From NCBI GenBank assembly GCA_944386675.1, contig CALXBY010000006.1, positions 330 through 64,329 on the forward strand: a stretch of DNA of 64,000 nt, given 5' to 3'. The notes below the pieces were generated by a model. That model searched no databases. It saw nothing but the letters and a program-made list of their open reading frames with translations, and was not told the origin of the DNA. Of the stretch, positions 19,905 through 21,565 are shown in pieces (position 1 is the first letter of the stretch; each line of letters opens with the position of its first letter). The stretch comes from an uncultured Clostridia bacterium (lineage in GTDB: Bacteria > Bacillota > Clostridia > TANB77 > CAG-508). A program made the translations under genes and the position numbers.

Positions 19905-21137
19905 ATGTATAAAAAATTTGGAAAAAAGATAATATTATTAATTATTTTATTAATTATATATATGTATGTATTAGCTATTCATTATATACCAGATGAAATT
20001 ACAATATTTGAAGGAGAAAAATTATCATTAAAAACGATTTTCGGAATTACATTACATTCAGAAGATGAAATATTAACAGCTTCTGCCAATACAGGTGAAA
20101 AGACAATAAGTAAAGTAGGTAGTGAAAAACTATCCATCAATTTATTTGATAAATTGTTTATAAAAAATGTGGAAGTTTCTGTGCTTCCTAAAACAACAGT
20201 AGTTCCTATTGGAAATATAGCAGGAGTAAAATTATATACAAGTGGTGTGTTAGTGGTTGGAATGTCTGAAATAGAAGGAGAAGATAAAAAAACATATAAA
20301 CCATATGAAAATACAGGAATAGAAGAGGGCGATACCATTACCAAAATAAATGAGGTGGCAATACATTCTACTGATGATTTAATAGAAAAAATAAATATGT
20401 CAAAAGGAAAACCACTTGAAATAGAATATTTACATGATGAAGAAACTAAAGAATGTAGTATTACACCTGTCAAAACAAATAGTGAAGAATATAAATTAGG
20501 ATTATGGGTAAGAGATAGTGCTGCAGGTGTTGGAACAGTTACTTTTTATGAACCATCAACTAAAAACTTTGGAGCCTTAGGACATGGAATAACAGATATA
20601 GATACTGGAGACTTATTAAATATTTCATCGGGAGAATTTGTTACTGCAAAAATATTAAATATAAAAAAGGGTGAAGATGGAAATCCTGGAAAAATTCAAG
20701 GAACTGTAGAAGAACAAGAAACAATAGGAGAAATAGCTAAAAATACTGCATTTGGAATTTATGGAAAGATAAAAGACTTATCTAGTTTAAACATAGATAT
20801 GAGCAAAGAAATGGAAGTAGCATTAAGAGATGAAATAAAATTAGGAAAAGCAACTATCTTATGTAGTCTGGATAACCAAAATATAGAAGAATATGAAATT
20901 GAAATTACAAAAATATATAGAGAAAATAATTATAACAATAAAAGTATGGAGATAAAGGTAACAGATGAAAAATTGATAGAAAAAACAGGGGGGATTATTC
21001 AAGGGATGAGCGGATCACCCATTATTCAAAATGGTAAATTTGTAGGTGCAGTTACACATGTTTTGGTAAATTCAGCAACAGAAGGATATGCTATATTTGG
21101 AGACTTAATGTTAAAGCAATCCAAAGAAGTCAAATAG
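19905..21137 (+). CDS. spoIVB: SpoIVB peptidase (S55)
   Basis: N-terminal TM, PDZ region and GHGITD...GMSGSPII catalytic motifs. Confidence 0.93.
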   Translation: MYKKFGKKIILLIILLIIYMYVLAIHYIPDEITIFEGEKLSLKTIFGITLHSEDEILTASANTGEKTISKVGSEKLSINLFDKLFIKNVEVSVLPKTTVVPIGNIAGVKLYTSGVLVVGMSEIEGEDKKTYKPYENTGIEEGDTITKINEVAIHSTDDLIEKINMSKGKPLEIEYLHDEETKECSITPVKTNSEEYKLGLWVRDSAAGVGTVTFYEPSTKNFGALGHGITDIDTGDLLNISSGEFVTAKILNIKKGEDGNPGKIQGTVEEQETIGEIAKNTAFGIYGKIKDLSSLNIDMSKEMEVALRDEIKLGKATILCSLDNQNIEEYEIEITKIYRENNYNNKSMEIKVTDEKLIEKTGGIIQGMSGSPIIQNGKFVGAVTHVLVNSATEGYAIFGDLMLKQSKEVK

Positions 21138-21565
21138 GGACGTGCCAAATCGTTTCAAAATGAGACCAAAAGGGACAGACCTTAACCTTCTTTTTCTAAA
21201 TTAGTAATCTGAAAAATATAGAATAGAAAAAATGCAACAATTTTGCGTATCTAAATTTGAATTTAGAAATTCTAAAAGAAAACAGTGAGGAATGTTCATG
21301 CACGAAAAAGTCTATATTTTAAAACTCTCACAAATTTCTCAGGTTCAATACAAAACATAAGAAATTTATACGAATTTTAAAATATAGACTTTTGAGGGGC
21401 TGAATGAAAGCGGCACACTGTTTTCTTTAAGAAGTTCTATGAAAATTCAGCTTATACAAAATTGTGTAATGACTTTCTATTCTATATTTTTTATTTTATT
21501 ATTTTTTTTAAAAAACATGGTCTGTCCCTTTTGGTCTCATTTTGAAACGATTTGGCACGTCCCTA
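21135..21565. mobile_element. MITE-like palindromic element: perfect 45-bp TIRs, TA flanks, ~337-bp imperfectly palindromic core
   Basis: TIR-L 21137-21181 (gggacgtgccaaatcgtttcaaaatgagaccaaaagggacagacc) is the exact reverse complement of TIR-R 21519-21563. TA lies at 21135-36 and 21564-65. Confidence 0.8.

Follow-up and report, generated by a model that had tools for sequence, protein, structure and literature searches.

Systems in which a dispersed repetitive extragenic palindromic (REP) sequence is accompanied by a REP-associated tyrosine transposase (RAYT) have, to our knowledge, been studied almost only in Proteobacteria. Other small palindromic elements are built differently: in the BIME-1 or RIP elements of Escherichia coli, two inverted palindromic units are arranged around a conserved central IHF-binding motif, and Correia/NEMIS elements as well as the miniature inverted-repeat transposable elements (MITEs) derived from IS630 (Nezha etc.) represent TA-duplicating copies of a whole element. 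The REP/REPIN-RAYT systems used here for comparison are those of E. coli, Pseudomonas and Stenotrophomonas (Nunvar 2010, PMC2817692; Bertels and Rainey 2011, PMC3116915; Ton-Hoang 2012, PMC3333891). RAYT-like genes with long terminal inverted repeats (TIRs), which form moderately abundant singles, dimers and clusters, have been described as TIRtrons or TIRYTs, and some of these TIRs carry a G-rich GGGGWSAS motif (Di Nocera, De Gregorio and Rocco 2013, PMC3733652); group 1 RAYTs were reported in Clostridia (Bertels 2017). Here we analysed a palindromic element located between the convergent genes spoIVB and murC in a stretch of 64,000 nucleotides (the window) from an uncultured Clostridia bacterium (contig CALXBY010000006.1), which a preliminary description had regarded as a MITE. 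We consider it likely that this feature is a REP-like (REPIN-like) doublet of uncultured, spore-forming gut Clostridia with a GC content of about 27%, and that it is nearest to the TIRtron/TIRYT flavour of REP/RAYT systems, since its repeats are long TIR-like units with a GGGGAC-type motif and not GTAG-tagged REPs.

The spoIVB gene (19905-21137, plus strand; TIGR02860, E 2.6e-121, residues 8-407 of 410) and the murC gene (21563-22945, minus strand; TIGR01082, E 5.7e-142, residues 12-457 of 460) end in TAG stops at 21135-21137 and 21563-21565, respectively, and the G of each stop is the first base of a repeat unit. The left unit (21137-21181, plus strand), which was delimited by repeat search and by the family logo, consists of GGGACGTGCCAAA, TC, a small stem-loop GTTTC-AAAAT-GAGAC (21152-21166) and CAAAAGGGACAGACC; the right unit (21519-21563, minus strand; small stem-loop at 21534-21548) is its exact reverse complement. 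The repeat search returned inverted arms of 47 nt (21135-21181 and 21519-21565), 100% complementary and spaced by 337 nt, which confirms the perfect 45-nt TIRs of the preliminary description and adds to them the flanking TA. If up to three mismatches are allowed, the 45-mer has four matches in the window, with 0.00 expected from shuffled sequences. Between the units lies a 337-bp core (21182-21518) of the core-A family, which is an imperfect palindrome with an alpha arm at about 21421-21492 (minus orientation) and a beta arm at about 21212-21282. Its inner arm pairs of 32, 39 and 51 nt (84%, 77% and 78% complementary) include both of the pairings that had been quoted for the long palindrome before. 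The 441 nt spanning the whole element have a predicted folding energy of −183.9 kcal/mol (z = −21 vs shuffles).

Further statements of the preliminary description hold as well. The element occupies the entire convergent intergenic space, the two stops, both of them TAG, have their G in common with the repeat, as can be read from the sequence and from the ends of the open reading frames (ORFs) at 21137 and 21563, and no transposase ORF is located inside the element; in the list of ORFs of at least 40 amino acids, the sole frame touching the core is one of 46 amino acids that runs into murC. A scan of positions 20500-22200 against Rfam revealed no known RNA family and only sub-threshold matches to plant microRNA precursors, which are due to the long hairpin.

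The same unit, which we refer to as type 1, is dispersed over many loci, so that the element is a member of a non-coding inverted-repeat family, as had been proposed: five units are present in the window (two doublets and one solo unit), and many more in related metagenome-assembled genomes (MAGs). The second doublet and the solo unit had been overlooked previously. Doublet B (39272-39615; units at 39274-39318, plus strand, and 39569-39613, minus strand, i.e. 39274-39613 from end to end) has its arms in common with the spoIVB-murC doublet, and its 250-bp core belongs to a different, unrelated family. Its neighbours are convergent genes for an alpha-glucan phosphorylase and a PRK13670 nucleotidyltransferase, both of which end in a unit-fused TAG. 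The solo unit (25547-25590, plus strand) is a variant with a GGACA/TGTCC stem, which is more diverged than the doublet units and is located in a co-directional intergenic region, 6 nt past the TGA stop of an RNase E/G-family gene. Both other contigs with this gene carry the unit, so no strain lacking it and no single-unit empty site was found there.

Type-1 units are composed of GGGACGTGCCAAA, a 6-bp stem-loop and AAAGGGACAG. The 5' segment, GGGAC(G/A)TG(C/T)CAAA, and the 3' segment, AAAGGGACAG, are conserved; the stem varies in sequence and its pairing is kept. A scan with the first 20 nt of the arm as an exact 20-mer, which covered one genome per species, returned 85 stretches, all of them in about 20 MAGs (up to 13 per MAG); these MAGs are incomplete and are labelled uncultured Clostridia, Eubacteriales or Bacillota. 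We sorted 121 unit instances into 96 standard units, GGGACGTGCCAAATCGTTTC-A(AAA or TTT)T-GAAAC-(C)AAAAGGGACAGACC, 15 complete hairpins, the first 20 nt of which base-pair with a complementary copy of themselves, and 10 other forms. After de-duplication, 57 instances of the standard (U) type remained, 41 of which are solo and 16 of which (nine elements) have an inverted partner. The total sizes of the doublets are 116-127 bp (four elements), 288, 332, 340, 427, 743 and 1213 bp. Units are mostly extragenic; they follow stops, or their outer end lies a few bases away from a ribosome-binding site. Genes are thus on the side of the outer end, and spacer DNA is on the side of the inner end. In the small hairpin, the loop (logo positions 22-24) reads AAAAT in 50 of 73 units and its complement ATTTT in the other 23; such loop inversions are a typical outcome of template switching in quasi-palindromes.

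The largest of these doublets (1213 bp, locus L009) holds a 251-amino-acid ORF (4164-4919) between its inverted units. This ORF scores 36.2 bits with Pfam PF01797, Y1_Tnp (IS200-like transposase; cut-off 23). Among the NCBIfam models, NF047646 (REP-associated tyrosine transposase) fits it best, with E 4.7e-17 as compared with E 7e-4 for the IS200 model, and the ORF has a helix-turn-helix at its C-terminus. Among its homologues, HAH/HSH and RYI(F/Y)NNPVRA(K/N) are conserved. These motifs are the counterparts of the HUH, catalytic Tyr and NP(L/V)(R/K)xG hallmarks of RAYTs (Nunvar 2010, PMC2817692), with the final G of the last motif replaced. A RAYT-like transposase elsewhere, the search for which had been suggested as a check, was thus found in relatives, flanked by the same arms as the spoIVB-murC element.

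In a protein-alignment scan, the transposase locus was present once per MAG in 23 MAGs. Units bracket the gene at 20 of these 23 loci (plus on the left, minus on the right, inner ends toward the gene), and the gene adjoins ileS and/or an ABC-ATPase gene in 20 of the 23 MAGs, mostly at one fixed locus with the order ileS | transposase | ABC-ATPase, in line with vertical inheritance. Identities across MAGs are 84-100% for the flanking IleS and ABC-ATPase proteins and 56-100% for the transposase. The 6-bp stem of the flanking units is paired in 94.9% of cells, as compared with 25-49% in slid controls, and double (compensatory) changes occur at five of the six stem pairs; by lineage, the stems are CGTTTC/GAAACG, CGTTCA/TGAACG, CGTTCC/GGAACG, TGGACA/TGTCCA and TGAACA/TGTTCA. 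From these results, which correspond to the picture by which REP/RAYT systems are defined, we conclude that the units are associated and co-vary with a syntenic single-copy Y1 transposase. In about 1.25 Mb of related loci, searched non-exhaustively, no DDE transposase was seen, and the sole coding element found with type-1 ends encodes the Y1 transposase. By analogy with the characterised TnpA(REP), as outlined in Ton-Hoang 2012 (PMC3333891), the transposase would recognise the unit hairpin in single-stranded DNA and spread or maintain the units. In the doublet, the two 45-nt units are opposed, each with its outer end next to a gene.

A second Y1 transposase paralogue was observed beside radA at another locus (L083, 1890-2660). 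It is 26% identical to the first, has the motifs HVH and RYIHQNPLKA and is bracketed by inverted units of a different kind (type 4, see below). Since this second RAYT-like gene has its own units, several repeat/transposase pairs coexist in the clade.

Compared with the REP/REPIN-RAYT systems, we find the same dispersed extragenic repeat with a covarying stem-loop, which occurs as singlets and inverted doublets, the same single-copy syntenic Y1/HUH gene between two inverted repeats that evolves faster than its neighbours, and the same preference of the repeats for positions just downstream of genes. The present family differs in its host, uncultured low-GC Clostridia, in the absence of the GTAG tag, and in the unit itself, which has a length of 45-57 nt and only a 5-6-bp stem between long conserved unpaired arms. 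Moreover, about 40% of the units fuse their first G to a TAG stop, and in some doublets the place of a short spacer is taken by 200-650 bp of nested palindromic DNA. With the TIRtrons the family shares a transposase flanked by long TIRs rather than by classical REPs, and many units read TTGGGGACGT/GGGGACGG; the GGGGWSAS motif, however, is matched at only six of eight positions, and these families of Clostridia, the stop-codon fusion and the nested cores are not described in Di Nocera 2013.

The comparison of strains revealed how the spoIVB-murC doublet varies within a species. An exact-protein look-up of SpoIVB led to four places, one of which (L005) is identical to the window at spoIVB-murC. 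The other three (L006, L007 and L008, from three other samples) have 43 nt between the stops, TAG-AGACGTACCAAATCGTTTC-ATTTT-GAAACGATTTGGCACGTCCC-TA, with the junction TAGAGACGTACCAAATCGTTTCA|TTTTGAAACGATTTGGCACGTCCCTA. They are without the 382 bp at 21158-21539, the edges of which are ambiguous by the microhomology GT(T/C)TCA. In this short allele, a hairpin of 49 bp, both TAG stops are retained together with ~22 nt at the outer end of either arm. Long and short alleles differ at 0 of 1,233 positions in spoIVB and at 7 of 1,637 on the murC side, and with flanks this similar they must therefore come from strains of one species. The polymorphic sites that the preliminary description had proposed to look for in related strains thus exist, with the inner 382 bp present in L005 and absent from L006-L008. 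The predicted folding energy of the hairpin is −27.1 kcal/mol (spoIVB sense) and −35.7 kcal/mol (murC sense) for the short allele, and −183 and −193 kcal/mol on the two strands for the long allele.

In the long allele, the left small stem-loop (GTTTC-AAAAT-GAGAC) and its counterpart in the right arm (GTCTC-ATTTT-GAAAC) are mutually inverted, and because each of them is itself palindromic, they are also near-direct repeats. Replication slippage across the extruded hairpin, between the near-direct GTTTCA and GTCTCA, predicts exactly the observed 49-bp hairpin, and we regard this as the most likely origin of the short allele. That the deletion was caused by site-specific nicks in the two small loops is unlikely, because on a given strand these loops do not have the same sequence. 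At the spoIVB-murC junction of L144 (a type-1 hairpin with a 15-bp stem) and at a different place in L002, there are collapsed hairpins that break at other points; the different break points fit independent deletions. A further collapsed form, a single type-2 unit, is present at the spoIVB-murC junction of L111, and doublet collapse thus recurs.

Doublet B displays another kind of change. An exact-protein look-up of the neighbouring nucleotidyltransferase gave nothing on record; the look-up of the phosphorylase was successful. In one strain of the same species (L166, 4571-4910) the doublet is inverted, with 332 of 340 positions identical in inverted orientation vs 266 of 333 in direct orientation, while its flanks differ at 0-1 positions per 300 nt; in another strain (L167, 4571-4910) it has the direct orientation and matches the window at 337 of 340 positions. 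The 45-nt inverted units evidently allow the interior to flip. Presence or absence, inversion and replacement of the interior show that the long hairpin is genetically unstable.

These alleles also bear on the model of the preliminary description, according to which an IS630/Tc1-mariner-derived MITE was inserted at a TA dinucleotide and duplicated it. The perfect long TIRs, the TA on both flanks, the lack of an internal ORF and the multiple copies are all in line with such an element. The TA flanks, however, are not independent evidence, because convergent identical stops that abut an inverted repeat necessarily extend this repeat by TA, and they follow trivially from the two TAG stops. In 73 de-duplicated units, A (41 units) or G (31 units) stands at position −1, directly before GGGAC, T is found in 69 units at position −2 and in 56 at position −3, and the logo displays a weaker conservation to about −11, which is not the picture of a TA target-site duplication. 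The empty site is not TA either, because the element-lacking allele is not a simple ...TA... site and corresponds to the 49-bp hairpin, in which the outer halves of both arms (~22 nt each) are retained. In addition, most units are solo, the cores of different doublets are unrelated, and the only transposase that we found between such arms is of the Y1/HUH type, with the DDE search limited as stated above. We therefore do not maintain the target-site duplication or the IS630/Tc1-mariner assignment, and we regard a mariner-derived MITE as extremely improbable. What the element has in common with Correia/NEMIS and IS630-derived MITEs is its nature as a small non-coding TIR element beside genes, with a strong RNA hairpin and the ability to supply stops or terminators; it differs from them by the lack of a target-site duplication, by modular ends and by the Y1 transposase as the associated enzyme. 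A 15-bp target duplication of the hairpin tip was also considered and rejected, because the duplicated tips are inverted and not direct in all doublets examined.

The fusion with TAG is a habit of the whole family and not a target-site duplication. Of the 121 units, 47 (23 of 73 after de-duplication) come after an ORF in the same sense that is 90 or more codons long and has its TAG stop at position −2. TAG is the stop codon of 8 of the 40 long ORFs in the window, and four of these eight stops are unit-fused. Five times, an ORF was seen to continue into the unit, where it is closed by the TGA of AAAATGAAAC, by which the repeats reshape the C-termini of proteins. One of these loci (L062, 18-3167, unit at 3141) has TTG instead of TAG before the unit, and its IleS ORF gains the tail LGTCQIVSK and ends at the unit's internal TGA.

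For the spoIVB-murC junction we retrieved 76 orthologous loci and extracted their intergenic regions. The convergent arrangement and the stop positions are conserved among them, and the spoIVB stop is usually TAA. Distant relatives (L150, L151, L125, L145, L108 and L107) possess a simple, classical bidirectional terminator of 26-50 nt that is flush with both stops, e.g. TAAAAAACTCTCC...GGAGAGTTTTTTA in L150. Closer relatives have long palindromes from stop to stop, the arms of which are AAAAGGGATTTTGGGGACGGACTCATTTTTCCC (type 2) around a homologue of the window core, or TGATTTTGGGGWCGGAG (type 3). The closest species (L100) carries a type-1 doublet at spoIVB-murC, the core of which belongs to the family of doublet B (79% over 178 nt). 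This slot is thus occupied anew again and again, and the repeat-derived hairpin has taken the place of a terminator.

A stop-to-stop palindrome at every orthologous spoIVB-murC junction examined, together with a short allele that is a simple strong hairpin, is what one would also find with a purely host-derived, locus-specific conserved bidirectional terminator without mobility. Against this speaks that the same 45-nt sequence is present at dozens of unrelated loci and around the transposase gene, and that the junction sequence changes its family between close species. The preliminary description had named a sequence without other genomic copies and without polymorphism as the mark of a private terminator; both copies and polymorphism were found, and the element is a repeat. 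Furthermore, a search for intrinsic terminators (GC stem plus T-run) returned 0 sites in 20900-21800, and this lack of a T-tract signature counts also against a terminator role of the REP-like doublet. Like bidirectional intrinsic terminators, the element is a stop-to-stop hairpin at the same position; unlike them, it is 10 times longer and multi-copy, and A/T tracts are missing from its flanks. An exclusive host terminator is therefore very unlikely in our view. A terminator function as such is compatible with a REP-like doublet.

Because the doublet sits where distant relatives have their bidirectional terminator, we assume that the hairpin most likely serves as the common 3'-end structure of the spoIVB and murC transcripts, where it would block read-through or 3' exonucleases. 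The hairpin abuts the coding sequence on both sides, and as its beginning lies within the stop codon, translation termination may be dampened as well, by analogy with E. coli REPs located at under 16 nt of distance to a stop codon (within 15 nt), which stall ribosomes as outlined in Liang et al. 2015.

The interior of the doublet has a history of its own. According to the alignment, core A consists of two different conserved arms. The alpha arm (window 21421-21492 and 33229-33305; L090-L122; L193-L201) is 97-100% identical between species, compared with 86-91% for spoIVB DNA, which indicates either strong constraint or recent spread; the beta arm is likewise conserved and represents a different (~80%) inverted partner of alpha. 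Relatives of core A are located at orthologous spoIVB-murC loci, where the orientation relative to spoIVB varies between species, and also at other loci: in the window at 33171-33480, within a doublet with type-2 arms, AAAAGGGAATTTGGGGACGGACTCATTTTTCCC, and in L024 within type-1 arms with the same TTAACCTT junction. Nine more (L193-L201) were found on contigs of similar coverage in one metagenome (ERZ1643249). In these nine, core A is always central, its wrapper consists of type-2 arms, of type-4 plus type-2 arms, of type-1 arms or of one of two further arm kinds, and four of these loci have the constant order type 4 outside type 2 outside core. From this we conclude that the 337 bp of the interior do not represent the body of the element itself; they belong to another, asymmetric palindromic repeat family, which is nested between the units. 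As in BIME-1/RIP elements, two inverted units enclose a conserved non-REP central module at many loci, with the difference that the module here comprises 215-340 bp, is an asymmetric palindrome and resides inside several unrelated outer repeats. No naked or coding version of core A was found among the copies examined, and neither viral contigs nor, in distant blastn searches, phage and plasmid collections gave a match, so that nothing points to a phage or plasmid origin. The idea that the core is a degenerate transposase gene was rejected, as tblastn with the RAYT-like protein had no match in the window.

A promoter-like sequence, TGAACA and TAGAAT separated by 18 nt, was noted in the beta arm (window 21269-21298, minus strand), from where it points outward and antisense to spoIVB. 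The motif is conserved in the core family; it is a match to the consensus only, and in a promoter scan, promoter-like matches were no commoner than in shuffled sequences.

Several observations weigh against the interpretation as a REP-like doublet with a cognate RAYT. The NF047646 score of the transposase, 62 bits, is below the curated cut-off of 80, and sequence searches of the PDB with the transposase and with a four-sequence profile gave no meaningful match and did not reach the solved RAYT structures. By tblastn with the RAYT-like protein, no transposase gene was detected in the 64-kb window, and its presence in the window's own genome is thus unproven; the association of units and transposase, as drawn from the sequences, is correlative. 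The unpaired GTAG tag is absent from the type-1 unit, which begins with T(A/G)GGGACGTG; CGTC occurs in the reverse complement of the unit, 10 nt from the stem, unlike in the described CGTC REPs. The direction of the change between long and short alleles is not established, and the left arm of the short allele has A for the long allele's G at two positions, which is unexpected for a very recent deletion. Finally, core A occurs inside at least five kinds of inverted-repeat wrappers, which fits an insertion into hairpin centres better than passive cargo.

Owing to the two A-for-G differences, insertion into a pre-existing hairpin has to be kept as a live alternative. The core, together with inner modules, would then be the mobile entity and would insert specifically into the apex of pre-existing REP hairpins or doublets, with the 49-bp hairpin as the ancestral state, the long allele as a recent insertion and the arms as a landing pad instead of the ends of the element. 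This would agree with the central position of core A in all its wrappers, sometimes in two layers of constant order, with core arms that are more similar between species than spoIVB itself, with the variation of core orientation and core family at the same locus between species, and with a left arm that matches the family consensus in the long and not in the short allele. Insertion sequences that target REPs are a precedent, as outlined in Tobes and Pareja 2006 (PMC1525189): DNA entering REP palindromes, as with IS1397/ISKpn1 and the IS110-family ISPpu9/10, would yield nesting of this kind. Those elements, however, encode transposases, and the nested core is non-coding, without a known autonomous partner; no autonomous core version was found. 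The extra 382 bp, moreover, include the inner module CAAAAGGGACAGACC, which is integral to solo and to transposase-flanking units. There is no direct target duplication, the hairpin tips being in inverted register in every doublet examined, and the collapsed hairpins of L144 and L002 break at different points, as independent deletions would. We consider apex insertion rather improbable as an explanation of the spoIVB-murC element, and we favour the REP-like doublet with a secondarily collapsed short allele.

The nested, hyper-conserved and invertible core is the part of the element that the REP-like doublet leaves unexplained. As a speculation to which we attach only a low probability, palindromic repeats may insert into one another's apex and build 'Russian-doll' hairpins at gene ends, with the core of ~220-340 bp being either functional or an element that targets hairpin tips. 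If this were true, the core could be a structured RNA or an outward promoter, which by its inversion would switch the antisense transcription of spoIVB or murC; another option is that it represents a new kind of non-autonomous element targeting hairpin tips. The long, short and inverted alleles would in that case be programmed or enzyme-driven and not accidents of replication.

With the REP-like doublets described here, uncultured gut Clostridia possess a well-delimited family in which the anatomy of the unit is clear and the repeats co-vary with a cognate transposase at a syntenic locus. The full, collapsed and inverted alleles within one species offer a handle on repeat gain, loss and rearrangement. 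The high proportion of TAG-donating units (~40%) and the clade-wide swap of a classical bidirectional terminator, located between two essential or sporulation genes, for repeat hairpins bear on the question of how selfish repeats join the 3' ends of genes. For annotation they serve as a warning, since a repeat can be the source of TAG stops and of short extensions at the C-terminus in these MAGs.

Two further repeats were observed in the window. The type-4 unit, AAAATGTCCCAAACAGAAACGTCCCCAA...GGACA, is present in two solo copies (49933-49972 and 57781-57825). Between the end of one gene and the start of the next (28597-28708), we found a perfect 33-nt inverted pair, GTTGCCAAAGGGGACGGGGCATTTTGGCAACTT, the arms of which are 42 nt apart and are each a hairpin in themselves; this pair probably represents a further REP-like family with a GGGGACG motif.

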